This document shows positions 2,695 through 22,068 of a stretch of 44,850 nt of DNA, piece after piece. The DNA comes from Thermoanaerobaculia bacterium (GTDB lineage: Bacteria > Acidobacteriota > Thermoanaerobaculia > Gp7-AA8), in the NCBI GenBank assembly GCA_046261635.1, contig JBHEOL010000172.1:1-44850 (forward strand), given 5' to 3'. A program made the translations under genes and the position numbers. The number at the start of each line of letters is the position of its first letter. The first letter of the stretch is position 1. The notes beneath the pieces are model-generated. The model searched no databases. It was not told the origin of the DNA and worked only from the letters and a program-made list of their open reading frames with translations.

Positions 2695-4956
2695 TCAGAC
2701 TTTCGTTACCTTCACCGCGCAGATCTTGAACTCGGGCTGCTTGGATCCGGGGTCGACGGCGTCGATCGTCATGATGTTGCACATGTGATCGGCGTCGTGC
2801 ATGTGGATGTACACGAGTCCCTTCGAGGAGGAGTCCGCAATCTTTGCGCGGAACACCTCGGACCCGCGCCGCGAGGAGACCCGGACCCTGTCGCCGGTCT
2901 TCACGCCCAGCTTCTTCGCATCGGCAGGGTTGATCTCGGCCATCGACTCATAGTTCGCGTGAACGAGCTCCTTGCAGTTCCTCGTCATCGTGGAGGTATG
3001 CCAGTGCTCGATGTTTCTCCCGGTCGTGTAATAGAACGGGTACTCGGCGTCGGGGACCTCCTCCGGCGGCCTCTGAGGACGCAGCCAGACGACCGCCTTA
3101 TTGTCGGGCCGGCCGTAGAACTGGATCCTGTGCGGCCAGCTCGCCGAAACGAGGGGATCTTCTCCTTTGACGTAGCGCAGAGTGGTTCCCGGATGCCCTT
3201 CGGTCGGCAGCGGCCAGATCAGACCGGGCTCCTTGCGCAACCGCTCGCGGGTCATCCCGCTGAAATCGTACGCGGTGCCCTTGGCGAGGGTCAGGATCTC
3301 CGTCCAGATCTCGCTCGTGTTCCTGAACGGGAGCAGTTTGCCGTGCCCGAGGCGCTTCGCCAGATCGCAAAGAATGGCGAAGTCAGGCCGCGCTTCGCCC
3401 GGAGGCGGCGTTGCCTGCTCCATCAGCTGATACCGGCGCTCGGCGCAGCCGTAGACTCCTTCCTTCTCGACCCAGAGAGCTGCCGGAAGAACGACATCTG
3501 CGAGCTCCGTGGTCCGGGTGGGGTGGTAGCTGTCGGCGACAACGACGAACGAGTCGTCCTTCTGCATCGCCTTCCGATAACGGTTCACATTCGGCAGCGA
3601 CTGTCCCGGATTCGTGCACATGATGTAGAGGCACTTGATCTTTCCCTCTTCCAGTGCGCGGAACATGTCGATGGTGGCCAGGCCAGGCTTCGGCGCCAGC
3701 GTGCCCGCCGGGATCTTCCAGAGCGCCTCTATCTCGGCGCGGTGTTTTTCATTGGCAACCAGCCGGCCGTAGGGAAGAAGGTGGGATAAGGCTCCACCGT
3801 CCCGCACGCCACCGCAGGCGTTCGGCTGTCCCGTGAGCGAGAAGGGCGTGTTGCCCGGAGTCCCGATCTTCCCGGTGATGAGATGGAGGTTGTGAACGAG
3901 GTTGTTCGCCCACACGCCCTTGGTGCGCTGATTCAGCCCCATGCACCACATCGACATGGAGGCTTTCCCCTTCGCACCAAACCACCGGGCGGCGGTGATG
4001 ATGTCCTCGGGCTTGCAATCGGCGATGGCTGCTGCTTTCTCCGGCGTGTAGTCCTGGAGCATTGCGACGTAGTCGGCCCAGCTCTTGTTCGCCTCGGCAC
4101 CCTCTCCGAAGATCAGATGCGTCTTGATGAACTCCTCGTCGATCATCTTCTCGTTCACCAGGACCCAGGCCATCGCGTTGAGAATCGCGAGATCGGTTCC
4201 GGGCTTGAATGAGAGATGAAGATCTGCGATGCGAGCGGTCGGGGTCTTCCGAGGGTCGATGACGATGACCTTCGTCCCGGGCTTCGAGTTCTTCCGCTTC
4301 ACGATTCGCTGGAAAAGGATCGGATGTGCTTCCGCCGCATTCGACCCGATGAGAAAGATGACATCGGCGTGATCGATGTCCTCGTAGGTTCCCATCGGCT
4401 CGTCTTTGCCGAAGGTCGTCATGTAGCCGCCGACGGCAGAAGCCATGCAGAGCCGCGGGTTTCCTTCGACGTTGTTGGTGCGGATTCCGGCCTTGAAGAG
4501 CTTGTTCGCGCAGTACGTCTCCTCGGTCAGCCCCTGGCCGGAGCCGTAAAACCCGACCGAATCGGGGCCGTACTGATCGATCGACCTCTTGAATTTCGAA
4601 GCGACCAGAGTCATCGCTTCGTCCCAGCTCGCCTTGACGAGCTTGCCATTCTTGCGGATGAGGGGGTGGGTCAGGCGATCTTTACCGGTGAGAATCTGGG
4701 GAAGAAGGAAACCCTTCAGGCAGAGGAAGCCCTGGTTGTGGTTCTCCTTGTCCCCCTTGACGGCGAAGACCTTGCCGTCCTTGACTCCCGCATAGAGCCC
4801 GCACCCGGTGCCGCAGTAGCGGCACACGGTCTTGACCCATTTTTCGCCGCCGGGCTGAGCGGCAAAGGCCTCGGCGGTGAAACGAAAATCGCCGAGAGCA
4901 GCGAGTGCGCTCGCTGCCGCCGCAGACTCGAGAAGTGTGCGTCTGGTGATGGTCAT
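2695..4956 (-). CDS. napA: Periplasmic nitrate reductase catalytic subunit NapA (Mo-bisMGD, 4Fe-4S)
   Basis: Twin-arginine signal (MTITRRTLLESAAAASALAALG). N-terminal 4Fe-4S motif CRYCGTGCG...C. Molybdopterin oxidoreductase length and motifs. Embedded in a napMADGH context. Confidence 0.9.
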   Translation of the reverse strand: MTITRRTLLESAAAASALAALGDFRFTAEAFAAQPGGEKWVKTVCRYCGTGCGLYAGVKDGKVFAVKGDKENHNQGFLCLKGFLLPQILTGKDRLTHPLIRKNGKLVKASWDEAMTLVASKFKRSIDQYGPDSVGFYGSGQGLTEETYCANKLFKAGIRTNNVEGNPRLCMASAVGGYMTTFGKDEPMGTYEDIDHADVIFLIGSNAAEAHPILFQRIVKRKNSKPGTKVIVIDPRKTPTARIADLHLSFKPGTDLAILNAMAWVLVNEKMIDEEFIKTHLIFGEGAEANKSWADYVAMLQDYTPEKAAAIADCKPEDIITAARWFGAKGKASMSMWCMGLNQRTKGVWANNLVHNLHLITGKIGTPGNTPFSLTGQPNACGGVRDGGALSHLLPYGRLVANEKHRAEIEALWKIPAGTLAPKPGLATIDMFRALEEGKIKCLYIMCTNPGQSLPNVNRYRKAMQKDDSFVVVADSYHPTRTTELADVVLPAALWVEKEGVYGCAERRYQLMEQATPPPGEARPDFAILCDLAKRLGHGKLLPFRNTSEIWTEILTLAKGTAYDFSGMTRERLRKEPGLIWPLPTEGHPGTTLRYVKGEDPLVSASWPHRIQFYGRPDNKAVVWLRPQRPPEEVPDAEYPFYYTTGRNIEHWHTSTMTRNCKELVHANYESMAEINPADAKKLGVKTGDRVRVSSRRGSEVFRAKIADSSSKGLVYIHMHDADHMCNIMTIDAVDPGSKQPEFKICAVKVTKV

Positions 4957-5360
4957 TGGTCACCTCCTGCCGGAGTCCAGTGAGGATTCAGAGCATGCGC
5001 CGAGTGGCACGAGAAGCAGCTCTTCTCCTTCATCTTCGGATGCTCCATGGTCGCGACCTGCTGCGGGTGGCATCCGAGGCACCGCTCCGGTGTTGGCTCG
5101 ATGGTGAAATCTTCGCCCGTGGAGCCGTGGCAGACGAAGCAGAGAACGTTGTTCATTCCATGCGGGCCGGCGTACCAGGCCTGCACGACTTCCGGGTGGA
5201 TGTCGGCGTGGCAGTCGGCGCACGCGATCGTCTCGTCGACTTCCGGATGCTCGACTTTCGCAGGCGCCTTGGTGTCTGCCAACTCCGCCCAGGAGGCCGA
5301 AACACCGAGCCCCCAGAGAAGCGCAGCCGCCATGAGCAGCACGAACAGTTTCGATTTCAT
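4953..5360 (-). CDS. napM: Periplasmic tetraheme cytochrome c (NapM-like)
   Basis: Sec signal peptide (MKSKLFVLLMAAALLWGLGVSASWA). Four CxxCH motifs (CADCH, CFVCH, CLGCH, CFSCH). 4-nt ATGA overlap with napA. Confidence 0.7.
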   Translation of the reverse strand: MKSKLFVLLMAAALLWGLGVSASWAELADTKAPAKVEHPEVDETIACADCHADIHPEVVQAWYAGPHGMNNVLCFVCHGSTGEDFTIEPTPERCLGCHPQQVATMEHPKMKEKSCFSCHSAHALNPHWTPAGGDQ

Positions 5361-5425: not shown

Positions 5426-6997
5426 TCAGCCGCCGATCTTCAGTCCGCCGTAGTTGAACCGGAGGGTGGTCCGGAGCTCCCAGGCTGAGTCGTCATACAG
5501 CGCAGTTCCATTGATGAGGTACCCGGCAGCATCTCCGGGGAAGAAGACTCCGCCCCGGAGGGTCCAGATCAGGTTCTTCATCACGTTCCAGTCGAGCATG
5601 AAATCGACCTCGGAACCGAGATCGTCGGAGCTTGCCGCCCCGAACTCTCCCGGATCGATCGCTCCGTTGCCGTTGACGTCACTCCACGGACGCAGCGGTT
5701 CGGTCGCCTTCATGACCGTTCCCGAGAGGAACAGCTTCCACTGCGGGCGGATGGGGAAGGAGGCGTTGAGCTGCAGGAGCGTCGTGTTCTCGAACTCGCG
5801 ATAGCCGCGGGAGCCGGGCGATCCGAGGCCCTGGGGCGTGATCCCTTCCTCATCGGGCATGATCGAGTCTTCCCAGACCTCGTTCACGTAGAAGAAGCCG
5901 TTCGTGCGGATCTTGTTGATGTTGCCGTCGCCCGACATCGGGTCGTCGTCGCCGGATCCCATGCCGAAGACTGCTCCAACCGTCGCCTTGCCGACCGGCA
6001 TCTTCGCGTCGAGGTAGAGGTTGTATCCGGTCAGATCGCCGTTGTTGACGTCGAGGAGCTGATTGGGACCCGAGTTGACGTTCGGGACATCGTCGCTGCC
6101 GGTCAGGTAGTCGACTTCACCCTTGAGAGCGACTTTGCCGGCCTTTCCGGCGAACGCGAATCCGAGCGCGGTGACCTGGCTCAGGTTCGGGCGGAAGCGG
6201 GCGTTGAAGTACTGCAGCTCGTTCGGAGCGTAGGTGCGGCCGTCAATGTCCCCGCGGTCTCTGTAATAGGCAATGAAGGGATTGAGATTGAAGTTGCCGC
6301 GCTTGCCGGCGAAGTTGACGTAGAACAGATCAGAATCCTCTCCGCTGACTCCACCCGGGGCGACGTCGTCGGTGAGCGAGTCCGCGCCCTCGTACATCTT
6401 CGTCCAGTCGAAGGTCGTGACCCAGTTCCCGTACTTGCGCGAAACCTGAACTCCATCCCCGTCCTGGTCGAGGACGAGAAGGTTACCGAGCTTGTTCCCC
6501 ATGCGGCCGACGCGGAAGGTCGTCCCTGCGATCTGCTCGGGAGAGAACTCGACGTATGCCCAGTCGACGTGCATCAGGAAGTTCGTTTCCTTGTTGTTGA
6601 ACAGATTCGAGAAGCCGGGACGGTCATTGTCCCGCTGCTCGTTGTCGAGGCCGAAGATGGACTGGGCAATGTCGATCCGCACGACGCCTTTCAGGTTCGG
6701 CCCATAGCTGAGCTCGGGTTGAATCCTGAAGAGCTGGATCATGTACGCGTCGTGATCGGTGACGAGTCCGGGCGCGTCCTTGCCGAGAAAGAAGTTGTTC
6801 TGTGTATAGCCGTTGAACTCGTAGAAGCCGCCGAGGGTGAGCGCCAGCTTCGGATCGGGCGCGGGCGTCTTAGGCTGTCCCTCGGGGGCAAGCGGGGGGG
6901 TCTGGGGTGGCGGCGGGGTCGTCTGGGCGAACCCGGCGGCCGCGATCATCAGCGCGATCGCTGCGATCGCGATCCAACGGGGAAACTGCGTGTTCAT
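5426..6997 (-). CDS. Putative outer-membrane beta-barrel (porin-like) protein
   Basis: Start reassigned to ATG 6997, which has a GGAGAGAGG SD just upstream. Signal peptide MNTQFPRWIAIAAIALMIAAAGFAQ, then a Pro-rich linker. The remaining ~480 aa are rich in G/Y/N/D/F with alternating beta-strand-like patterns. No family recognised. Confidence 0.6.
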   Translation of the reverse strand: MNTQFPRWIAIAAIALMIAAAGFAQTTPPPPQTPPLAPEGQPKTPAPDPKLALTLGGFYEFNGYTQNNFFLGKDAPGLVTDHDAYMIQLFRIQPELSYGPNLKGVVRIDIAQSIFGLDNEQRDNDRPGFSNLFNNKETNFLMHVDWAYVEFSPEQIAGTTFRVGRMGNKLGNLLVLDQDGDGVQVSRKYGNWVTTFDWTKMYEGADSLTDDVAPGGVSGEDSDLFYVNFAGKRGNFNLNPFIAYYRDRGDIDGRTYAPNELQYFNARFRPNLSQVTALGFAFAGKAGKVALKGEVDYLTGSDDVPNVNSGPNQLLDVNNGDLTGYNLYLDAKMPVGKATVGAVFGMGSGDDDPMSGDGNINKIRTNGFFYVNEVWEDSIMPDEEGITPQGLGSPGSRGYREFENTTLLQLNASFPIRPQWKLFLSGTVMKATEPLRPWSDVNGNGAIDPGEFGAASSDDLGSEVDFMLDWNVMKNLIWTLRGGVFFPGDAAGYLINGTALYDDSAWELRTTLRFNYGGLKIGG

Positions 6998-7167: not shown

Positions 7168-8535
7168 TCACTGCTGGTACCTCTGCTCGTAGAAGTCGAG
7201 CATCTTCTGAATTTCCTCCTTGCTCAGCCCGTGCTTCCAGGCGTGCTCGGGCATCTGGAGTGCTGCCGTGGTGACGCCCGGCATGGCATGCTCGGCCTGG
7301 GGCAGGAACTTGTTGTAGAAGTGCTTCGAAACTTCATAGAACCCGTGCCACTGGGTGAAGTCGGGTCCCATCATCGACGCCCCCATCCGAGCGCGGCGTC
7401 CTTCGTGGTGCCACAGTTCGTAGAACGTCCATTCGAGCTCTTCGTCGAACGGAGTCGGCGTGATCTTCCCCTCGGCCCTGAGGGTCTCCATGATGTCGTT
7501 GGCCGGGATCGCGAACTTGTCGTTGTAGAGCCCGACCGCGTCATCGAACATCTGGAAGTAGTTGGTGGTCCAGGTCTCGCCGTGGCATTCGAGGCAGACC
7601 TTGGTCATCCTGTCGCGGCGAATCTCCCACTCTTCGAGCCGCTTGGAGACGACCGGACGCAGAGTCCATGAGATGCGGTCGCCGATGTCGTGCGTGATTT
7701 TCTGGGTCGGCGTGGCGCTCATGTGGCACGTGGCACACGTGGGTGCGGCGGTGTAGTTCTTTCCCACGATCCACTCGTCGGCATCGAGATTCATCGCCTC
7801 GCGATGAGCGACGAACATGATCCCGTGCTTCGATTCCTCGAAGATCTCGATCTGCGGGTGATCCGGTCCCATGTGGCACCGGCCGCAGGTTCGCGGCTCA
7901 CGCGCCTGCGCCTTCGAGAAGTGATGACGCGTATGACAGGCGGTACAGGTGCCGATGGATCCGTCCGGGTTGACTCGGCCGATTCCGGTGTTCGGCCAGC
8001 TCCCCGGAAGAGGGACGCCTTTGTCGCTCACCTGGACGACCGAACCGTGACACTGTTTGCAGCCGAGGTTCGCGCCAGGCACGCCTTCGATGACCTCGCC
8101 GAGAATGTTGTCGAGGGAACCGATGAACTCAGCGGCCTTCGCATGGTGGGAGTCGGTGAACTGGTCGAACTGCTCCTTATGGCAGCTTTCGCAGTCCCGC
8201 GGGCTGGGGACCATTGCGACCTGATATCCCTCGTGAACCCAGAGGTCCTTGTCGCCCTCCTTCGCCTGGTGGCAGGACATGCAGCCGATTCCCTTGGCGG
8301 CATGGACCGACTTCTCCCACTGCCGTGAAAAGTCGACTGCCGCATGCTTTTCATCGTGACAGTTGATGCAGGCGCGCGTGACTTCGTCGGCGTGATACCG
8401 CGCCGTCTTCTCCGGCTTCGCGCGCTCTTTCTCGATCCAGCCGACGGCGATGGCCGACGCCGTGAAGGCCACGGCGAAGAGCGCTACGAGTACTTTCTTG
8501 AAATGCAAGCTCATGCTCCCTCCTGAAGAGCTCAT
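7168..8535 (-). CDS. Octaheme cytochrome c of the hydroxylamine oxidoreductase (HAO) family
   Basis: Eight CxxCH motifs (CINCH, CMSCH, CESCH, CKQCH, CTACH, CGRCH, CATCH, CLECH). The block CTACHTRHHFS...CGRCHMGPDH...SKHG resembles the heme-5/6 region of Nitrosomonas HAO as I recall it. N-terminal hydrophobic anchor/signal. 4-nt overlap with the cyt b gene. Confidence 0.85.
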   Translation of the reverse strand: MSSSGGSMSLHFKKVLVALFAVAFTASAIAVGWIEKERAKPEKTARYHADEVTRACINCHDEKHAAVDFSRQWEKSVHAAKGIGCMSCHQAKEGDKDLWVHEGYQVAMVPSPRDCESCHKEQFDQFTDSHHAKAAEFIGSLDNILGEVIEGVPGANLGCKQCHGSVVQVSDKGVPLPGSWPNTGIGRVNPDGSIGTCTACHTRHHFSKAQAREPRTCGRCHMGPDHPQIEIFEESKHGIMFVAHREAMNLDADEWIVGKNYTAAPTCATCHMSATPTQKITHDIGDRISWTLRPVVSKRLEEWEIRRDRMTKVCLECHGETWTTNYFQMFDDAVGLYNDKFAIPANDIMETLRAEGKITPTPFDEELEWTFYELWHHEGRRARMGASMMGPDFTQWHGFYEVSKHFYNKFLPQAEHAMPGVTTAALQMPEHAWKHGLSKEEIQKMLDFYEQRYQQ

Positions 8536-9638
8536 GACAGGGCTTCCCAGATCAGAAAAACGATCACCGTGGCGAGGAAAGCGCCCCCCACCACCGGTGC
8601 GATCTCGAGTTCGGGTTTACGGCGGCGGATTGCGCCGTCGATGAAAGGCCAGAAAAGGATTCCAAGGCCGGCGACGATGATCCCGGTCATGCCGAGCCAC
8701 AGCGGTGCGATCTTCAGCCACCTGAAGGCGGGGTAGAAGTACCACTCGGGCTTGACGTGGAGGGGGGTCACCTGCGGATTCGCCGGCTCACCGAGATGAG
8801 CCGGGAAAATCATCGCCAGCATCGTCACGGCGGTGACCAGGACCAGGCCGACGATCAGCTCCGTCGTCACATGATCAGGAAAGAACGCGAAGTAGCGGTT
8901 GGGATCGAACCTCTTCTTCCCCTCCCGATCCTCCTCCACGGTGATCGGCCGTTCCTGCACCTCTTTCGGGGCGTCGAGCTCCATGACCCCGTGGATCCTG
9001 AGGAGGAAGACGTGGAGGCCGATCAGAACCAGCGCCAGGACCGGCATCGCTCCGATATGCAGCACGTAAAGCCGCGTCAGCGTCGTCGGGGTGACCGTTG
9101 CGCCACCCCGCAGCAGCGCCGCGGTCCAGGGACCGACGAGCGGAAGCTGCCCCGCCACGTTCGTTCCGACCGTCGCCGCCCAATAGGAAAGCTGATCGTA
9201 AACGAGCGCGTAGCCCGTGAACGCGAACCCGAGCGTCACTCCGAGAAGCGCGACGCCCACCATCCAATTCAGCTCGCGCGGCTTCCGGTACGCGCCGGTG
9301 AAAAAGACCCGGATCGCGTGAAGGGCGACCGCCACGATCATCAGGTTCGCCGTCCAGTGATGCACCGAGCGAATCCACCAGCCGAACGGCACCGCCTCCT
9401 GGATCCGCTGCACCGATTGCCAGGCTCTTTCAGGGGAGGCTTCGTAATAGAACGTCAGCAGAATCCCCGTGGCGATCTGGATACCGAGAAGAATCAGGGG
9501 GGTGCCACCCAGCGCGTACCACCAGTTCTTCATGTGGTGCGGGATCGGTTCTTTCGACAGCTCCTCGAATACCTCGATGTCGACCGGCACTCGTTCCTTG
9601 ATGAACCGCTGCCACGAATTGACTCGTGTCGTCGTCAT
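8532..9638 (-). CDS. Cytochrome b (b6-like N-domain fused to subunit-IV-like C-domain)
   Basis: Strong by-eye similarity to cytochrome b6 (FGWWIRSVHHW, RKPRELNW, TLTRLY). His pairs are separated by 13 intervening residues (helix B) and 14 (helix D). KPEWYF (PEWY) motif in the C-terminal half. No CxxCH. Confidence 0.9.
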   Translation of the reverse strand: MTTTRVNSWQRFIKERVPVDIEVFEELSKEPIPHHMKNWWYALGGTPLILLGIQIATGILLTFYYEASPERAWQSVQRIQEAVPFGWWIRSVHHWTANLMIVAVALHAIRVFFTGAYRKPRELNWMVGVALLGVTLGFAFTGYALVYDQLSYWAATVGTNVAGQLPLVGPWTAALLRGGATVTPTTLTRLYVLHIGAMPVLALVLIGLHVFLLRIHGVMELDAPKEVQERPITVEEDREGKKRFDPNRYFAFFPDHVTTELIVGLVLVTAVTMLAMIFPAHLGEPANPQVTPLHVKPEWYFYPAFRWLKIAPLWLGMTGIIVAGLGILFWPFIDGAIRRRKPELEIAPVVGGAFLATVIVFLIWEALS

Positions 9639-9639
9639 C

Positions 9640-10089
9640 TCACGCCTCCGCCACCGGCACGGTCACGAAGACCTTGTCCTGGTCGAGTCGCACCGTGAAG
9701 GAAGCGAGCGGCGATGGAGGCGGACCGGCCGTCACCTTTCCGGCCGTGTCGAATCGTCCGTCGTGGCAGGGACAGAGGAAGTTCTTCTCTCGCGAATCCC
9801 AGCCGACCTGGCAACCGAGATGCGTGCACACCGAGGAGAAGACCCTCACGTCCCGCTCCCCGAGCCGGACCGCCAGCAGGTCGTTGCCCAGTACCGAACG
9901 GAAGCTGCGGCTCGCGCCGACCGGAAGGTCTCCGAGCTGAGTCAGCAGGATTTCTTCGGCGCTCCCGCGCCGCGCCGGAACGAGGAACCGGCGAAAGTAA
10001 TCAGCAGCAAGAACAAATCCGGGGATGAGCGCCAGGCCCATCACCAGGTTCGCAAGAAAATCGCGTCGTCGTAAGCGGGACCAGTTCAT
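9640..10089 (-). CDS. Rieske [2Fe-2S] protein
   Basis: CTHLGC...CPCHDGRF Rieske boxes. Start reassigned to ATG 10089, with a GGAGGAG SD 3 nt upstream and a Tat-like RRRDFL motif. The stop is 1 nt before the cyt b start. Confidence 0.85.
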   Translation of the reverse strand: MNWSRLRRRDFLANLVMGLALIPGFVLAADYFRRFLVPARRGSAEEILLTQLGDLPVGASRSFRSVLGNDLLAVRLGERDVRVFSSVCTHLGCQVGWDSREKNFLCPCHDGRFDTAGKVTAGPPPSPLASFTVRLDQDKVFVTVPVAEA

Positions 10090-10112: not shown

Positions 10113-10128
10113 AGCGAGGCAGGTGCCG
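10113..10128 (-). promoter_or_regulatory. Candidate sigma-54 (-24/-12) promoter for the Rieske/cyt b/octaheme operon
   Basis: The minus strand reads CGGCACCTGCCTCGCT. The GG and GC dinucleotides have exactly the consensus spacing of TGGCAC-N5-TTGCW. It would leave only a ~13-nt leader before ATG 10089. An NtrC-type activator is encoded immediately upstream. Confidence 0.3.
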
Positions 10129-10282: not shown

Positions 10283-10306
10283 GAATCGGCAGTCGACTGC
10301 CGATTC
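10283..10306. promoter_or_regulatory. Perfect 24-bp palindrome, candidate enhancer (UAS) or operator
   Basis: GAATCGGCAGTC|GACTGCCGATTC. Lies ~105 nt downstream of the response-regulator stop and ~170 bp upstream of the candidate -24/-12 element. No U-tract follows on either strand. Confidence 0.4.
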
Positions 10307-10409: not shown

Positions 10410-11789
10410 TCAGCCGGCCACAGTGGGGGACCCGCGTTCCCTCTCGCGGGGTCCCCGGACGAGCCCGTGCTTGCGAAGAAGGTTGTAGAGCTGACGGGGG
10501 GAGATGGCGCTCTTCCTGGCGACCTCCGACAGCCTTCCACCCCACGCCTGCATCGCCTGCTCGAGATACTTGCGCTCGAACTCGTCGACCACGTGCTGCT
10601 TTTCCACCTGGAATGGGGCGAGGAGGAGCTGGCCCGAGTCGCGCGGGCAGCGCAGGCGACCGCCCTGACTGAGGATGACGAGTCGCTCGAGCGTGTTCTC
10701 GAGCTCTCTCACGTTCCCTGGCCAGCGTTGCGCGGAGAGCCAGGCGATCAGGTCGGAATCGATGTCGGTGATTTCCTTCTCGTGGCGCTGGGCGAGACGA
10801 GGAAGGATGAAGTGAACCAGGTCGGGGATGTCTTCGCTGCGTTCCCGCAGCGGCGGGATATGGATCGGCACGACGTTGAGCCGGTAGAACAGATCCGCGC
10901 GGAACTCGCCCGCCTCGACCTCGGCATGCAGATCGCGGTGAGTCGCCGCCACGATGCGAAGGTCGACCGCCTGGCCCGCATCGGACCCTAGGGGTGTGAC
11001 CTCTCCATCTTCGAGCAGTCGAAGGAACTTCGGCTGCAGGCTCTGCGGAAGATCGCCGATCTCGTCGAGAAAGAGCGTTCCGCCGTGCGCGGTGAGAGCG
11101 CGCCCCTGCCGCATGCGCTCGGCGCCCGTGAACGCGCCGCGGGTATGGCCGAACATCTCGGCCTCGAGCAGCGTCTCCGGAATGGCAGCGCAGTTGAGCG
11201 CGACGAATTTCTTCTGAGAGCGTCGGGAAGCGGCGTGGATCGCCCGGGCCACGACCTCTTTCCCGGTCCCGGTCTCGCCGGTGATGAGCACGGTCACTTC
11301 GGTGGGGGCGACGTCCGCAATCAGCTCCCTCATCCTCTCGATGGCGGAAGATCGGCCGACCAGCTGGCCGGCGGCCGTGGAGAGCCGCGTGTCCCGCAGA
11401 TCACGCCTCAGCCTTCGCAGCTCCACCGCCCTGCCGAGGACGAGTCCCAGCTCTTCGTAGTCGAGCGGCTTCGGCAGATACGTGAACGCACCGATCTTCA
11501 TCGCCTCGACCGCCAGCCTCTCGTCTCCATGCCCCGTGATCATCACCACCGGAACATCGGGCGCCCGGCGGTGGAGGTAGCGAAGCACATCCATGCCAGA
11601 CATGCCCGGAAGAAGATAGTCGACGACGATCACGTCCGGCTGGATTTCCGGGAGCATCGATAGCGCGATGCTTCCCTCGCTCGCTGCATGGACGACGTAA
11701 CCCTCGCGCTCGAGCGCCACGGACATGACGCGGACCGCGACGGGTTCGTCTTCCACGACGAGGACGACCGGAGGACGAGGACGCTTCAT
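10410..11789 (-). CDS. Sigma-54-dependent response regulator (NtrC/Fis family)
   Basis: Receiver domain (VLVVEDEP...VIVVDYLLPGMSG). AAA+ Walker A (GETGTGKE) and GAFTGA loop. C-terminal HTH. 4-nt overlap with the kinase gene. Confidence 0.9.
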   Translation of the reverse strand: MKRPRPPVVLVVEDEPVAVRVMSVALEREGYVVHAASEGSIALSMLPEIQPDVIVVDYLLPGMSGMDVLRYLHRRAPDVPVVMITGHGDERLAVEAMKIGAFTYLPKPLDYEELGLVLGRAVELRRLRRDLRDTRLSTAAGQLVGRSSAIERMRELIADVAPTEVTVLITGETGTGKEVVARAIHAASRRSQKKFVALNCAAIPETLLEAEMFGHTRGAFTGAERMRQGRALTAHGGTLFLDEIGDLPQSLQPKFLRLLEDGEVTPLGSDAGQAVDLRIVAATHRDLHAEVEAGEFRADLFYRLNVVPIHIPPLRERSEDIPDLVHFILPRLAQRHEKEITDIDSDLIAWLSAQRWPGNVRELENTLERLVILSQGGRLRCPRDSGQLLLAPFQVEKQHVVDEFERKYLEQAMQAWGGRLSEVARKSAISPRQLYNLLRKHGLVRGPRERERGSPTVAG

Positions 11790-12856
11790 CGCGAAACGAG
11801 ACGCGCAACAACGCGCGCGCCTCCCTCCGGAGGATTCGAGACCTCGAGATCTCCACCATGAAGGCGGCAGACCTCGCGCATGATCACCAGCCCCAGTCCC
11901 GTCCCATCGGGACGCGTCGTGACGAACGGCTCGAACAGATGGTCGAACACCGCCTGCGGGAAACCGGGACCGTCGTCACGAATCTCGATCTCGAGCCACT
12001 CGCCTTCGGGTTTCGTATCCATGGAGACCTCGAGCGTCACCCGGCCGCGAGGCCCCGCGGCCCACACGGCATTCTCGACGCCGTTGTTGACGAGACGCCG
12101 GAAGAGCTCCGGATCGAGATTGACCTCGGGAAGCGACGGCGGCACGGTCAGCCGGACACCGGAACCGCTCGGGCGCAAGGTCTCGCGCAGCAGCTTCCCG
12201 ACATCGGTTTTTTGTGGATTCGGACGGAGTGGCCGGGTGACCTCGCGTAGATGGTCGATGAGCCCGCCGAGACGTCCCAGCTGATTCGAAACGATCTCGA
12301 GCATCTCGCGCGAGGCCGGGTCGGCCGACACCCGGGATGTGAGGTTGTGGACCGCCCCCGCGATGATGTTCAGCGGGTTCTTGACCTCGTGAGCCAGCTT
12401 GGCGGCCATCCTGCCCAGACCCGAGAGCTTCTCCTGATGAACGAGTTGCTCTTCGAGGACCTTCTGCCGCCGAACGTCCTGAGCCATCCAGACGACGCCG
12501 CGAAACTCCCCCTCCGGGCTCCCGATGCGGGCGTACTGAACCCGCCATCCATTGGCGCGCTCGATGACCAGCGGGTGCTGCCGTGCCTCGTCCGTCGAAC
12601 GGAAACGGTCGAATACTTTGCCGAGAGCCTTCCTCGACCGCTCCGGGTGGCACTCGGCGACCGAGCGACCGACCCTCTGCCCGACCCCTCGAATCCGGTC
12701 CGCAAGAGGATTGCAGAATACGATGCGCTCCTGCTCGTCGGTGATGATCAAGCCGGCCGGGAGGCTGCGCAGAACGTCCTCGTAGAAGGCGAGCTTCCGC
12801 TCAGCCTCGGCGAGGCGCTCATCGACACGGATTCCCGTGGACTTGACGGCGGTCAC
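11786..12856 (-). CDS. Cytoplasmic PAS-domain sensor histidine kinase
   Basis: No TM segments. PAS domain (LPAGLIITDEQERIVFCNPLA...). H-box HEVKNPLN. HATPase_c N and G boxes (NNGVENA, DDGPGF, GTGLGL). Confidence 0.85.
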   Translation of the reverse strand: MTAVKSTGIRVDERLAEAERKLAFYEDVLRSLPAGLIITDEQERIVFCNPLADRIRGVGQRVGRSVAECHPERSRKALGKVFDRFRSTDEARQHPLVIERANGWRVQYARIGSPEGEFRGVVWMAQDVRRQKVLEEQLVHQEKLSGLGRMAAKLAHEVKNPLNIIAGAVHNLTSRVSADPASREMLEIVSNQLGRLGGLIDHLREVTRPLRPNPQKTDVGKLLRETLRPSGSGVRLTVPPSLPEVNLDPELFRRLVNNGVENAVWAAGPRGRVTLEVSMDTKPEGEWLEIEIRDDGPGFPQAVFDHLFEPFVTTRPDGTGLGLVIMREVCRLHGGDLEVSNPPEGGARVVARLVSR

Positions 12857-17521: not shown

Positions 17522-17956
17522 TTAGGTCCTCTCCACCATCACGCTCAACAGCGTGGCTTCCGCCACGATCGTCCCGTCGACTCGCGCGACTCCCTGGAGC
17601 CTCGCCGTGGTCGACTTCCTCTGAAGGACGGTGACCTCCATCAGGAGCTGATCGCCCGGAGTCACGGGCTTGCGAAACCGCGCCTTGTCGATGCCTCCGA
17701 AAAAGAAGAGCTTACGATGACGGTCCTCCATGTTCTTCAGGAACATCAGCGCCCCGCACTGCGCCATCGCCTCGACGACCAGTACGCCGGGCATGACGGG
17801 CTCCCCCGGAAAGTGCCCGTTGAAGAAGGGTTCGTTGAAGGTCACGTTCTTGAGCCCGACGATCCGCTTCTCATCCTCGAGCTCGAGGATGCGATCGACG
17901 AGCAGCAGCGGATAGCGATGCGGCAGGTAGTCCAGAATCTCCTTGATATTCAGCAT
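17522..17956 (-). CDS. fabZ: 3-hydroxyacyl-ACP dehydratase
   Basis: [13 protein letters not shown]...[15 protein letters not shown] hot-dog signature. Abuts lpxA. Confidence 0.9.
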
Positions 17957-17980
17957 GCTCTCTCCCGAGTGCTCGTTCGG

Positions 17981-18997
17981 TCATTCATTTCCGGTCCCAC
18001 GCTCCAGAGCCTCGAGACGCGCGAGAATGTCAGGCAGCCTGCGGACCAGCGCTTCCGCCCTCAGATGCTCACGCAGAGGACGTGCCGGGCTCCCCGCCAG
18101 TGTGATCGGCCCCTCGAAGTCCTTCATGACCGCCGACTGGGCCGCCACCATGACCTTCGGCCCGATCCGCACGTGGCCCGACACTCCGGACTGCCCCGCC
18201 AGAACCGCGTAATCACCGACCTCGCTCGATCCAGCGAGCGCAACCTGCGCGACGATCAGACATCCCCGTCCGACTCTCGCGTTGTGCGCGATCTGAACCA
18301 GATTGTCGATCTTCGTTCCCGCTCCAATGACGGTCTCCCCGAGCGCCGCGCGATCGATCGTCGTATTGGCCCCGATCTCGACGTCGTCTTCGATCCGGAC
18401 GATACCGATCTGCGGAATCTTGTGGTGAACGCCGCCGCTGCTCGCGAAGCCGAAGCCGTCCGCTCCGATGACGACGCCGGAGTGAACGATGCAGCGACGG
18501 CCGATCCGGCAGCCGTAATAGACGGTCACGCCCGGATGGAGCACCGAGTCCTCACCGATCCCGGCGCCCGCCCCGACATGCACCCCTTCGAACAGGACGG
18601 CCCGGTCCCCGATAATCGCCCCTTCGCCGATCGTTGCAAATGCTCCGATGCGGACCCCCTCGCCCACTTTCGCCGAAGAGGCGATCCTCGCGTCGGGAGA
18701 TATCCCTTCAGGAAGCGGAAACCCCGAGAAAAACCTCTGCAGCACGATCGCGAGGGCGAAGTACGGATCGCGCACGCGGATCCAGCGCGAAGACTCGCCG
18801 GCCATCCCGCGCTCGACCAGAATCGCCCCCGCCCGCGTCGTGGCCAGGTATTTCTGGTACTTCGCGTTCGCCAGAAAACTCAGGTCTTCCGGCCCCGCGT
18901 CGCCGAGCGCACGGGCGCCGGTGATCCGGCGGCTACGGTCACCGTGAAACTCACCTTCGACCAGGTCGGCGATCTCTCCGAGAGTAACGGTCGGCAT
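17981..18997 (-). CDS. lpxD: UDP-3-O-acylglucosamine N-acyltransferase
   Basis: LpxD N-terminal domain ([20 protein letters not shown]) plus hexapeptide repeats. Start chosen by family N-terminus; ATG 19009 is an alternative. The 19096 start would run through a terminator hairpin. Confidence 0.85.
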
Positions 18998-19033
18998 TCG
19001 GGAGCGCATTGTACCCGCCGAACGGGCGGGGAC

Positions 19034-19067
19034 AAAAAAGCCCCCCCGGCGCAAGCGCCGGGGGGGC
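19034..19067 (-). terminator. Rho-independent terminator between skp and lpxD
   Basis: The minus strand reads GCCCCCCCGGCG-CTTG-CGCCGGGGGGGC followed by TTTTTT, ~25 nt after the skp stop. Confidence 0.65.
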
Positions 19068-19092
19068 TCGGATTTCGACTCCTCGCGGGCGA

Positions 19093-19617
19093 TCAACCCT
19101 GCGGGCGTTCGTTGTAGCGCTTGATCACCGTGTCGGTGATCTCGATCGCCGGGGAGGCATACACCAGACCCGACTCGAATTTGTTGAAAATGGCGGCGAA
19201 GCCCATTTCCTTACCGAGCTCGTCGATGAGGGGCATGATCTGGGCCTCCATCGCCTGGAGCTCCCGGTCGCGGGCTTCCGCCAGCTCCCGCTCGGCGTCC
19301 TGTCCGGCGCGCTGGAGAAGAATCCGGCGGTCGGAAATCTGCTTCTGCATTTCCGCGATCCGGTCGGCGGCGAGCGACATCCGCTTCTGACTCAGCTCGG
19401 TGTCGAGTGCGCGAATCTCGTCGTCCATCTTCTTGAGTTTCGCGGTCCGCTCCTCCTGCATCTTGCGGAGCTTCTCGAGAGCGGCTTTCCCGGACTCCGA
19501 CTCCGCCAGAACGCGCTGAACGTTGATGACCGCGATCCTCGCGGGTGAGGTTGTCTGCGCCATCGCCGGAACGGCGATCGCCACTGCCAATCCAATGGAA
19601 ACGAAAAACTTGTTCAT
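19093..19617 (-). CDS. skp: Periplasmic chaperone Skp (OmpH family)
   Basis: Signal peptide, ~150-aa coiled-coil-rich OmpH-like sequence. Canonical position between bamA and lpxD. Confidence 0.8.
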
Positions 19618-19689
19618 GGTCTCTCCTTTTATCCACGGCCCTGTCGGGGCCCTATGCCTGCGAGGTGTCTGGGGTGATTCCGTCCGGAA

Positions 19690-22068
19690 TCAAAACGTGT
19701 TGCCGATGGAGAACTGGAAGGACTGGAACTCGTCCCCCGGCTGCTCGTCGACGTTGACCGCATAAATGAAGCGGAGGGGAAACTGGAACACGGGGAGAAA
19801 GATCCTCAGCTCCGCGCCCGCGGTGTAACGGAACTCCGAGGGATCGAACGTCTCCTCGTACGCGTACGACTGACCGGCATCGGCAAACAGCACCAGTCGC
19901 AAAGGATCGTTGATGCGGTAGAGGTACTCGAAATTCGCGACGCCGTACTTGTAGCCGCCGACCCGCTGGAGGTTTCCGTTGATCTCTTCGCGGGGAACGA
20001 GAGTATAAGACTTGAAGCCCCGGACCGAGTACTCACCGCCGACATAGAACCTTTCGCTGAACGGCACGCAGAGGCGGCTGTTGGGGTCCGTCGGAATGAG
20101 ATCGATCGCGAAATGGGCGCAATCATCGTCCCCGGTCGGAAAGATCTGGCCGCCCTCGAGATTCAGGCTCCAGGAGCTGCGCCGGGTGAGCGGAGTCCAC
20201 TTGGTGTAATTGATGACCGGCTTGATCAGATTGATCGTGCCGCCGAGCGGACCGCCGGAGTAGTTCACGACCATGCTCGCCTTCGTTCCGCGGAACGTAT
20301 CGAACGGGTTGTCGCGCGAGTCGTACCGGTACGCCGGCACGAAGGTGGAGGTCGTGTACTGATTGTCGCGGATCAGTGGCAGAGGGACGTTCCCGTTCTC
20401 ATCGGGGAAGGGAACGAGCTCGCTTCGCTCTTTGACGTCCTGAAGCGCATAGACGAAGGAGATGCTCTCGAACCTGTCGAGACGGAACCCGTAAGCGAGG
20501 CTTCCGCCCATTGCCTCGCTCTGGATGCCGATCGCCTCGGGAAGCTTGGTCTCCCGATTGAAGAGTGAGATGCCGAACGAGTGCGGCCGATCCAGGAACC
20601 AGGGATCCGAGTAGGAGAGGCTGAAGAAGTCCTGCCGTGCTCCGCTCTGGAAGCTGACGCCGAGGTTTTCTCCCTCGCCGAGGAAGTTCCGCGTCGCGAA
20701 CATCAGCTGGCCGAAAAATCCATAGGCTTCCGAGTAACCGCCCCCGAACTGAATGTCGTTCTTTCCTTGTTCCTGTCCCTTCACCGTGATGTCCACGGTG
20801 CCGGTTTCCTGATTGACCCGGAAATCCGGATTCTCGGTCACCTTGAAATACCCGAGCTGACCGAGCTTGTACATGCTCGCCTTGAAGGTCTCCATGTCCA
20901 TGATGTCGCCCTCGGAGAGGAAGATCTCCCGGCGCAGCACCTTGTCCTTGGTGACCGTGTTTCCCTTGAACTCGAGCCGACCCAGCCGGAACTGCTCACC
21001 TTCGTAGACCTGCAGGTGAACGTTGACGACGTTGTTGTCGACTTCGACATACTGCGGATTGATGTAGGCGTAGATGTATCCCCGCCGGCGGTAAGCCTCT
21101 TCGAAGAGCTCGACGCGGTCCTGGATCGGCTTCCTGCTCAGCGTCTCTCCCTGTTCCAGCGGGAAGCCGCCAAGGAGCTGCTCGGAGGTGAAGACCGTGT
21201 TGCCGGTCGAAGTGACCTCTCCGAACTGATGGACCACGCCCTCCTGGATCGGAACGACGATCCGGACGCGCTCCTTCTTCGTGGTCGTGATCTGGGGATC
21301 GCCGAGCACCACATCCTTGTATCCATGATCGAGATAGAGGTTGCGTACCCGCTCGAGGTCGGCGTCGAGCTTGGACGGGACGTAGACGTTGCGCTTCCTC
21401 GCCCAGGTGTAGAGGTTATGAGCCTTGACCTCTTCCATCTCGCGGCGCAGCTTGCGATCCGAGAAGCGGTCGTTCCCGGTGAACTCGACCCGTGCCACCC
21501 GCGCCTTGATGCCCTCGGCGATCTCGAAGACGATGCGGCGCTCGGAGGGATCGATCATCTCTTCGAGGGATGTCTCGACGCTCACCCCTTCGAATCCGCC
21601 CTCGGAGTACGCGGTTCGAATCGTCTCGGCGGCTCGCCGGATCGTCGTCTGTTCGATCGTGTTCCCCACGTGGAGATCGATGTTCGCCGCCTCCAGCGCC
21701 TCGGTGACTTTCGTCAATCCGAGATTCTTGTTGCCGCGGTACTCGACGGCTCCGATCCGGGGACGCTCGACCACGGTCACCGTCACCACCGCGCCACCAA
21801 CCGACTGCAGGGCTTCGATCCGGATGTCATCGAACAAACCGGTCTGCCATAGGTTGAGGAAATTGCGCCGCAGCGCGGCAGGGTCGTATGGATCGCCGGG
21901 GTTCAGACCGAGGTAGACGCGGATCGTATCGCGGGCGACCGAGGCGTTACCGACGATCTCGACCCGCTCGATCGGTGTGCCCGGCTGGGGCTCTTCGACC
22001 GTCTGGGCCGGCAGCAGGCCGGCCGCGAGGACGAGAATGAGCAGATAAACGGGGAGTCGTTTCATCAC
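19690..22068 (-). CDS. bamA: Outer membrane protein assembly factor BamA
   Basis: Signal peptide, repeated POTRA-like units, C-terminal surface-antigen beta-barrel ending in ...FQFSIGNTF. Confidence 0.9.
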   Translation of the reverse strand: MMKRLPVYLLILVLAAGLLPAQTVEEPQPGTPIERVEIVGNASVARDTIRVYLGLNPGDPYDPAALRRNFLNLWQTGLFDDIRIEALQSVGGAVVTVTVVERPRIGAVEYRGNKNLGLTKVTEALEAANIDLHVGNTIEQTTIRRAAETIRTAYSEGGFEGVSVETSLEEMIDPSERRIVFEIAEGIKARVARVEFTGNDRFSDRKLRREMEEVKAHNLYTWARKRNVYVPSKLDADLERVRNLYLDHGYKDVVLGDPQITTTKKERVRIVVPIQEGVVHQFGEVTSTGNTVFTSEQLLGGFPLEQGETLSRKPIQDRVELFEEAYRRRGYIYAYINPQYVEVDNNVVNVHLQVYEGEQFRLGRLEFKGNTVTKDKVLRREIFLSEGDIMDMETFKASMYKLGQLGYFKVTENPDFRVNQETGTVDITVKGQEQGKNDIQFGGGYSEAYGFFGQLMFATRNFLGEGENLGVSFQSGARQDFFSLSYSDPWFLDRPHSFGISLFNRETKLPEAIGIQSEAMGGSLAYGFRLDRFESISFVYALQDVKERSELVPFPDENGNVPLPLIRDNQYTTSTFVPAYRYDSRDNPFDTFRGTKASMVVNYSGGPLGGTINLIKPVINYTKWTPLTRRSSWSLNLEGGQIFPTGDDDCAHFAIDLIPTDPNSRLCVPFSERFYVGGEYSVRGFKSYTLVPREEINGNLQRVGGYKYGVANFEYLYRINDPLRLVLFADAGQSYAYEETFDPSEFRYTAGAELRIFLPVFQFPLRFIYAVNVDEQPGDEFQSFQFSIGNTF

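Follow-up and report, generated by a model that had tools for sequence, protein, structure and literature searches.

The window analysed here, a stretch of 44,850 nucleotides from a Thermoanaerobaculia bacterium of the phylum Acidobacteriota (assembly GCA_046261635.1, contig JBHEOL010000172.1, positions 1 to 44,850), harbours on its minus strand three contiguous genes which encode, in this order, a Rieske protein, a cytochrome b and an octahaem cytochrome c. The gene of the Rieske [2Fe-2S] subunit (9640-10089, minus strand) starts with an ATG at 10089, upstream of which a ribosome-binding site (GGAGGAG) is present, and specifies 149 amino acids including a twin-arginine translocation (Tat) signal or anchor. 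The 368-residue cytochrome b (8532-9638, minus strand), recognised by Pfam, PDB matches and motifs, unites the b6 and subunit IV portions in one chain, and the third gene (7168-8535, minus strand) codes for an octahaem cytochrome c with a predicted N-terminal transmembrane anchor which Pfam as well as PDB sequence and fold searches assign to the HAO/IhOCC family (HAO, hydroxylamine oxidoreductase). An earlier note on this DNA had placed the Rieske stop codon one nucleotide before the start of the cytochrome b gene, and direct reading of the junction confirms this: TGA occupies 9642-9640, a single base follows and the ATG of cytochrome b lies at 9638. The same note had claimed a four-nucleotide overlap between the cytochrome b and octahaem genes. 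The first ATG of the octahaem frame, at 8535, does share the sequence ATGA with the cytochrome b stop codon, but AGGAGG (8524-8519) stands before a second ATG, at 8514, which fits the N-termini of homologues ("MSLQFKK"). The true start is therefore probably ATG 8514, 17 nucleotides past the cytochrome b stop, which would abolish the overlap; the genes are contiguous under either start. A scan of every open reading frame of the 44.85-kb window for CxxCH motifs yielded only two proteins, the octahaem cytochrome and a tetrahaem cytochrome of 135 residues, so that a gene for cytochrome c1, cytochrome f or a dihaem cytochrome c is, as stated before, absent from the window.

The Rieske protein carries the twin-arginine signal RRRDFL and the cluster-binding boxes CTHLGC and CPCH, scores 47.5 bits against the Pfam Rieske model and retrieves Rieske proteins of b6f complexes as top PDB matches. 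Its box II reads CPCHDGRF, compared to the usual CPCHGSxY, and is thus devoid of the Ser and Tyr which act as H bond donors. In bc1 and b6f complexes these two residues raise the potential of the cluster, as established by mutagenesis. Since the box lacks both donors, the sequence suggests a centre of lower potential, as in menaquinol-type complexes. Cytochrome b matches Pfam Cytochrome_B with 167 bits as well as Cytochrom_B_C; among PDB chains it is matched best by cytochromes b6 (E 8e-50), and residues 263-364 correspond to subunit IV. The His pairs are spaced by 13 and 14 residues, as is typical of b6, and the Qo motif is present as "KPEWY". The Cys binding haem ci is missing, as the "fyCLGG" of spinach b6 aligns in the PDB alignment with "wyALGG", which puts an Ala in its place. 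The boxes, spacings and PEWY motif listed in the earlier note can hence all be read in the sequence and agree with the Pfam and PDB matches. Likeness to the b6f complex and to the bc complexes of Firmicutes extends to the b6-like His spacing, the subunit IV homology, PEWY and a b6f-like Rieske protein, whereas the fusion of b6 with subunit IV, the exchange of the haem-ci Cys for Ala, the CPCHDGRF box and the lack of f or c1 set the window apart from both. Judged by these motifs, Rieske protein and cytochrome b are a complete, Qo-competent quinol-oxidising core, and the locus shows the features by which the bc1/b6f superfamily is defined, namely Rieske boxes with an export signal, a four-His cytochrome b with PEWY, and a c-type cytochrome with a predicted anchor encoded alongside.

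The octahaem protein contains eight CxxCH motifs (C56, C85, C115, C159, C197, C217, C267 and C314) and matches Pfam PF13447 with 98.5 bits (cut-off 21.9), so that each of the three proteins is recognised by the profile expected for it (Rieske, Cytochrome_B/Cytochrom_B_C and PF13447). In a sequence search of the PDB its best match is IhOCC (E 9e-43; 4e-65 with a profile), followed in the ranking by NeHAO (E 1e-20), the anammox HOX and HAOr proteins and HDH, and matches to NrfA and ONR have E values of about 1e-3. A model computed by AlphaFold 2 (AF2) is of moderate quality (predicted local distance difference test, pLDDT, 71; predicted template modelling score, pTM, 0.59). The fold found by Foldseek agrees with the sequence ranking, with template modelling (TM) scores of 0.62 to IhOCC, 0.52 to NeHAO and 0.51 to KsHAOr, and the top 11 matches all belong to IhOCC, KsHAOr, NeHAO, KsHOX or HDH (E 3e-13 to 3e-6, TM score 0.44-0.62). 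Foldseek returned no significant match to NrfA, MccA or the TvNiR-type ONR (E of at least 0.29 for NrfA and ONR), and the CxxCK motif, which provides the Lys-ligated haem of ONR and NrfA, does not occur in the sequence.

Within the active site the catalytic Asp-His pair of the family is retained in "CHMGPDHP" after the haem-6 motif, where D225-H226 aligns with D267-H268 of NeHAO; it is invariant in 26 family sequences, as are many residues of the pocket. The Tyr which forms the P460 cross-link in HAO proper appears to be lost. In three MAFFT modes Tyr467 of NeHAO falls on the invariant W396 of the octahaem protein, and on a Phe in IhOCC; this assignment is of moderate confidence, as identity in the aligned region is low. 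Tyr467 was located within the motif GGWT-Y-TEGW of HAO fragments from ammonia-oxidising bacteria by counting from the PDB alignment through fragment P0124. These HAO proteins were retrieved with a stretch of NeHAO as database query, which returned fragments only, and two which cover the C-terminus entered the MAFFT alignments; hhalign and local HMMER alignments against PDB chains, the latter with either the full or a C-terminal profile, ended before the cross-link Tyr. Opposite a further active-site residue of NeHAO, Tyr334, the alignment has an invariant Arg (R293 in the octahaem protein), and one might speculate that this distal-pocket Arg recalls, by analogy, the nitrite-binding Arg of NrfA.

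Enzymes without the cross-link Tyr are regarded as the ancestral, reductive type (Soares et al., PMC9250108). Because W396 replaces the cross-link Tyr, we assign the octahaem protein, as far as its aligned sequence tells, to this non-cross-linked reductive type together with IhOCC, KsHAOr and epsilon-Hao, and exclude HAO proper. The relation to HAO pointed out in the earlier note therefore stands, borne out by PF13447 and by the fold, but the protein is not HAO itself; it is of the IhOCC/HAOr type. That it is nevertheless a true oxidiser of hydroxylamine or hydrazine which delivers electrons to the quinone pool has nothing beyond family membership in its favour and is extremely improbable, given the invariant Trp in the place of the cross-link Tyr, the direction in which Rieske/cytochrome b modules run, that is, from quinol to a c-type acceptor, and an operon whose context is nitrate reduction. 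Instead, we favour, with a probability of roughly 60%, a reading in which the three products form one Q-cycle membrane complex and the octahaem subunit replaces cytochrome c1 or f and reduces the nitrite produced by a NapA encoded downstream, most probably to ammonium.

To what extent the three genes belong together can be judged from their distribution. At E <= 1e-10 the octahaem family has more than 7,900 members, and the surroundings of the gene were surveyed in 80 genome loci. Rieske and cytochrome b genes lie directly upstream on the same strand in 25 complete loci; two more loci end inside the cytochrome b gene, and one has the Rieske/cytochrome b pair downstream. Together with about 30 loci on metagenome contigs the order of the triad is thus conserved across phyla, as the neighbourhood survey suggested in the earlier note was meant to establish. 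Among the carriers, which represent about ten lineages, are Nitrospira (including N. moscoviensis), Planctomycetota, Myxococcota, Bacteroidales, Cytophagia, Calditrichaceae, Ignavibacteriales, Thermodesulfobacteriota and unclassified "Deltaproteobacteria", and in 11 of the linked genome loci NapA is encoded just downstream. About ten of the 80 loci harbour a four-haem NapC/NirT-like gene in place of Rieske and cytochrome b (one confirmed by Pfam), and in about half of them the neighbours are unrelated genes (YwiC, HlyIII, BacA, a desaturase, a glycosyltransferase). A check of these unlinked homologues for a hidden membrane partner showed only such unrelated neighbours. Orphan octahaem proteins mostly have N-termini resembling signal peptides and are abundant in Acidobacteriota.

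In a rough neighbour-joining tree the linked octahaem genes form three or four coherent clades. Over 40 loci the distance matrices of octahaem protein, cytochrome b and Rieske protein correlate with a Mantel r of 0.67-0.75, a value reached by none of 2000 permutations, although shared organismal phylogeny accounts for part of the correlation; the value for octahaem protein and cytochrome b nearly equals that for cytochrome b and Rieske protein, which are known partners. A second correlate of the linkage is found at the N-terminus. The AF2 model of the octahaem protein predicts a transmembrane helix at residues 10-38, and all 24 evaluable linked octahaem proteins possess an uncharged segment of 19-22 residues which ends in bulky residues without a small-x-small motif, 18-22 residues before haem 1. 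Most N-termini of unlinked homologues end in small-x-small motifs resembling signal peptidase sites. Octahaem proteins linked to Rieske and cytochrome b thus keep, to judge by their N-termini, an uncleaved membrane anchor, and this correlation together with that of the distances supports a physical unit, so far as sequence comparison can indicate one.

It may be objected that Rieske protein and cytochrome b are merely co-regulated with the octahaem protein, which would then be fed by a soluble carrier and take part in no stable complex. Enzymes of the IhOCC and epsilon-Hao type do function as separate proteins, and many homologues are orphans; yet the window encodes no other c-type subunit to take over the electrons of the Rieske protein, the anchor is kept in all complete linked octahaem proteins, and the genes are adjacent in a fixed order across phyla. 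We consider this explanation quite unlikely and retain the membrane complex as the preferred reading.

Downstream of the octahaem gene follow, in this order and likewise on the minus strand, genes for an outer-membrane barrel, a tetrahaem cytochrome and NapA-, NapD-, NapG- and NapH-like proteins. The tetrahaem protein (4953-5360, 135 amino acids) is a NapM-like periplasmic cytochrome c with a cleavable signal peptide, four CxxCH motifs and matches to Pfam Cytochrom_c3_2 and C7; its position directly upstream of NapA is conserved in related loci. The NapA-like catalytic subunit of nitrate reductase (2695-4956, 753 amino acids) carries a Tat signal and three Pfam molybdopterin domains, and NapA is its best NCBIfam model, with 712 bits under a cut-off of 904. 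Such a short NapA-like protein behind a tetrahaem gene resembles the napM-type clusters described in PMC5317091. The NapD-like chaperone (2382-2618, 78 amino acids) is assigned by position; it has no NCBIfam match, and its orthologue in the Thermoanaerobaculia metagenome-assembled genome (MAG) L081 weakly matches PF03927 (NapD). A NapG/NapF-like poly-ferredoxin (1876-2385) scores 142.8 bits against NCBIfam NapG and 70.6 bits against NapF, both under cut-off, and a NapH-like membrane ferredoxin (1073-1879) matches Pfam Fer4_5 and, with 90 bits and again under cut-off, NCBIfam NapH/MauN. Neither NapC and NapB nor any nor, nos or nir gene is found in the window. The N-terminus of the NapG/NapF-like protein, MTRSRFGWLRDFL, is missing a clear twin-arginine motif, and the protein may be cytoplasmic. 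If so, Rieske protein and cytochrome b would be the only periplasm-facing quinol oxidase of the operon.

The order of eleven genes is repeated in MAG L081, whose octahaem protein shares 78% identity with that of the window, and in several metagenome contigs. As in the window, Nap genes share the operon in about 12 genome loci and about 30 metagenome loci. L081 (GCA_054604015.1), the closest sequenced relative, additionally carries an NrfA-like gene with NrfH at 17772-19755, divergent from napH; the first haem motif of this NrfA-like protein is CxxCH, not CxxCK. The window has an amidohydrolase gene in this place. Among the loci fetched, NrfA stands beside the operon only in L081, and in a further locus, L145, NrfA-like matches lie at a distance of about 5-6 kb from the barrel gene. 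The remainder of the window consists of housekeeping genes, such as BamA, ClpB, DnaB and others.

In view of this gene content the octahaem protein could also be mainly a wire, that is, an equivalent of cytochrome c1 which feeds NapA via the tetrahaem cytochrome and thereby replaces NapC and NapB, its own catalysis being secondary. The lack of NapC and NapB and of a clear twin-arginine signal in the NapG-like protein would fit such a role, as would the co-occurrence, in many loci, of the Rieske/cytochrome b-octahaem unit with the barrel-napM-napA unit; moreover, transfer from Rieske/cytochrome b to NapM was proposed as one route by Kublanov et al. (PMC5317091). The triads of Nitrospira, however, have no Nap genes nearby, neither the Asp-His pair nor many residues of the pocket vary, and the NapH- and NapG-like genes offer an alternative donor to NapA. 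As the main function of the protein we therefore regard mere conduction as unlikely; the two roles are not mutually exclusive, and a wire is compatible with the favoured reading of a nitrite-reducing complex.

The barrel gene (5426-6997, minus strand) encodes an AlgE-like outer-membrane beta-barrel with a signal peptide, assigned by a weak match to Pfam Alginate_exp, by AF2 and by Foldseek. The model is all-beta with about 18 strands (AF2 pTM 0.76), and its closest Foldseek match is AlgE (E 1e-18), followed by OccD/K and OprP porins. The family is rare: only 93 representatives were counted in a set of 1.84 billion proteins. Directly upstream of the napM-like tetrahaem gene and NapA there is a homologue of the barrel gene in most of 80 metagenome loci, and Rieske, cytochrome b and octahaem genes are present in about 30 of these as well. 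A long loop is strongly conserved (GSGD...TEVWEDSxMPDEEGIxPQGLG...RGYRELENTT). From sequence and model, the barrel may be a channel for nitrate and nitrite. No published description of the family was found in the literature searched, and this rare AlgE-like family which accompanies napM-napA is the most original by-product of the analysis. Several barrel-nap loci (L091-L093, L098, L106 and others) contain, behind Rieske and cytochrome b, a longer and divergent HAO-like octahaem protein of about 530 amino acids with 33-43% identity; the linkage to Rieske and cytochrome b hence reaches beyond the octahaem subfamily studied here. The barrel, along with a match of cytochrome b to ExtP below the cut-off, raised the possibility of a porin-cytochrome system for extracellular electron transfer, which we rejected because the barrel travels with napM-napA and the octahaem protein retains the HAO active-site pair.

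Upstream of the triad, again on the minus strand, a two-component system is encoded. A cytoplasmic sensor kinase with PAS, HisKA and HATPase domains (11786-12856; Pfam HATPase_c, HisKA and PAS), present in the same place in L081, overlaps with its stop codon the start of an NtrC-type sigma54-dependent response regulator (10410-11789) composed of REC, AAA+ and HTH_8 domains (Pfam Sigma54_activat with 230 bits, Response_reg and HTH_8; NCBIfam ntrC-like with 401 bits, under cut-off). Pairs of a histidine kinase and a sigma54 regulator recur beside these clusters in metagenome loci. The 320 nucleotides which separate the regulator gene from the Rieske ATG contain two candidate elements: a perfect palindrome, CGGCAGTCGACTGCCG (10287-10302, minus strand), which is a candidate upstream activator site and kept as CGGCAATCGGTTGCCG in L081, and a sigma54-type -24/-12 element, GGCAC-N7-GC (10114-10127, minus strand), about 25 nucleotides upstream of the Rieske ATG. 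GG and GC of the latter are kept in L081 (GGCACagccggTGC), in an intergenic region which has otherwise diverged. The sigma54 pattern is not enriched across the window (7 matches compared to 7.95 expected), so that assignment of the promoter relies on position and conservation and is to be taken as a lead, not as a demonstration. A scan for sigma70 promoters found nothing. Between octahaem and barrel gene neither a minus-strand terminator was found nor, in the 170-nucleotide gap, a sigma54-like element seen. From this arrangement the triad probably heads an operon under control of the adjacent sigma54 two-component system, and we infer that the regulator binds the palindrome.

According to the reading we favour, the Tat-exported Rieske protein and the b6-type cytochrome b would oxidise quinol, possibly menaquinol, at the PEWY-containing Qo site. 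The high-potential electron would then leave the [2Fe-2S] cluster for the haem chain of the octahaem subunit, which its own N-terminal helix would hold at the membrane and which would thus stand in for cytochrome c1 or f and be the terminal enzyme at the same time. At its fourth haem, predicted to be free of a fifth ligand and to be lined by the Asp-His pair, nitrite delivered by NapA would be reduced, most probably to ammonium, with hydroxylamine and NO as likely side substrates. With a Q-cycle module as electron donor, the reduction of nitrite would be electrogenic and coupled to proton translocation, unlike the NrfH-dependent route. The soluble tetrahaem cytochrome may pass electrons from the complex to NapA, and the whole operon, including the barrel, would probably be switched on by the adjacent two-component system. 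The proposal in the earlier note of a quinol:N-oxide oxidoreductase in which a bc/b6f-type module feeds the octahaem protein directly is thereby upheld as the best reading, consistent with the missing Tyr, the retained Asp-His pair and the anchor; the direct transfer itself is what we infer from these features.

Several observations weigh against this reading. KsHAOr, a non-cross-linked HAO, yields NO and not ammonium (PMC9250108, PMC12485887). L081 possesses NrfA-like and NrfH genes adjoining the operon, and for this reason the octahaem protein need not be the ammonifying enzyme. As about half of the homologues are orphans and some 10% are paired with a NapC/NirT-like gene, the enzyme does not need a Rieske/cytochrome b partner. 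The moderate AF2 model, the moderate confidence in the position of the cross-link Tyr and the contribution of shared phylogeny to the Mantel correlation also count here, and a biochemical characterisation of any such triad complex was not found in the literature. The main uncertainties therefore concern the product, the stability of the complex and the way in which NapA obtains its electrons.

As to the product, the same complex might carry out the one-electron reduction of nitrite to NO or mainly remove NO or hydroxylamine, and would then serve denitrification or detoxification. KsHAOr, the second-best fold match, lacks the Tyr and makes NO (PMC9250108, PMC12485887), L081 has an NrfA-like protein and NrfH of its own beside napH, and denitrification has been inferred for one Thermoanaerobaculia MAG (PMC8906906). 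By contrast, IhOCC, the best match in both sequence and fold, has been termed an octahaem nitrite reductase (PMC9250108), the physiology of Nitrospira and Caldithrix requires ammonium as product, and nor, nos and nir genes are missing from the window. We regard formation or removal of NO as the principal task of the complex as rather doubtful and keep to ammonium as the more probable product of nitrite reduction.

Comparison with known systems shows that the arrangement has precedents. In Nitrospira moscoviensis a so-called ONR is encoded behind Rieske and cytochrome b, all three genes being highly co-expressed on nitrite as sole nitrogen source; a quinol-coupled reduction of nitrite to ammonium was proposed for it in 2015, and the organism has no NirA (PMC6606698). 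This protein (N. moscoviensis NSP M-1, locus L027, 1195912-1213249) is orthologous to that of the window (54% identity), with the same gene order and the same anchor, whereas it serves assimilation, in an organism which oxidises nitrite aerobically, and neither nap genes nor the barrel lie nearby. According to a survey of 2025, petBC or NapC adjoins ONR in most genomes (PMC12342949). The name ONR is misleading, since the protein lacks a CxxCK motif and does not match 8rv0 or NrfA in fold; on the basis of sequence and model it falls into the HAO/IhOCC clade and is not of the TvNiR type.

A comparable gene content is found in Caldithrix abyssi, an organism which forms ammonium from nitrate while possessing neither NrfA nor another nitrite reductase. 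Its Cabys_2564-2556 unites a nap cluster with Rieske, cytochrome b and a Tyr-less epsilon-Hao, for which the same electron routes have been drawn (PMC5317091). It shares with the window NapM, NapA, NapG, NapH and the triad, and the lack of NapB, NapC and NrfA, but differs in that the nap genes come first, a barrel is not reported and NapG has a Tat signal. Within our survey a Calditrichaceae locus combines the triad with NapA at 48% identity (L054).

The anammox parallel drawn in the earlier note is real as well, and so is its caveat: Kuste4574 of Kuenenia stuttgartiensis is the HAO-like subunit of the Rieske/cytochrome b complex specified by the six genes kuste4569-4574 and located in the anammoxosome membrane, its activity being unproven (PMC12485887). 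It resembles the window in placing an HAO-like octahaem protein without cross-link into a Rieske/cytochrome b gene cluster, and differs in its expected product, NO for hydrazine synthesis, and in lacking a nap context. The additional subunits of this cluster presumably include NAD(P)-linked ones. IhOCC of Ignicoccus hospitalis (PDB 4QO5) is, like the octahaem protein of the window, membrane-associated, without P460 and classed as a nitrite reductase (PMC9250108); it is, on the other hand, archaeal, comprises 521 amino acids with a large insertion and shares about 24% identity, and a link to Rieske and cytochrome b was not found in the literature searched. NrfHA and the HAO-like enzymes coupled to NapC/NirT do the same job, in that a membrane quinol dehydrogenase supplies a periplasmic multihaem N-oxide reductase. 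Unlike the module in the window, however, neither NrfH nor NapC is an electrogenic Q-cycle module, and NrfA is a pentahaem protein of another clade.

The claim that the architecture is essentially uncharacterised thus holds with regard to biochemistry, but the triad itself has been published in Nitrospira moscoviensis and N. japonica (PMC6606698, PMC12342949) and, linked to Nap, in C. abyssi (PMC5317091). From genomes the module has been known for about a decade, and the locus in the window is a further member. It adds another phylum and, with the anchor, the outer-membrane barrel and the sigma54 elements, new correlates, and brings no new principle. If the favoured reading is true, nitrite reduction would run on a proton-motive Q cycle and not on the NrfH/NapC route, which would change the energy yield expected of nitrate ammonification. 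Beyond this, we can tentatively imagine the triad complex as a single electrogenic hub which reduces nitrite at its own site and supplies NapA via the tetrahaem cytochrome, while an AlgE-like channel admits nitrate and nitrite; this would imply a Q-cycle-coupled dissimilatory nitrate reduction to ammonium, with a higher energy yield than that of NrfHA, in many uncultured phyla. The module also bears on the role of the anammox Rieske/cytochrome b complex with its HAO-like subunit, and, should the octahaem subunit indeed form ammonium, surveys which consider nrfA only would underestimate ammonifying potential.

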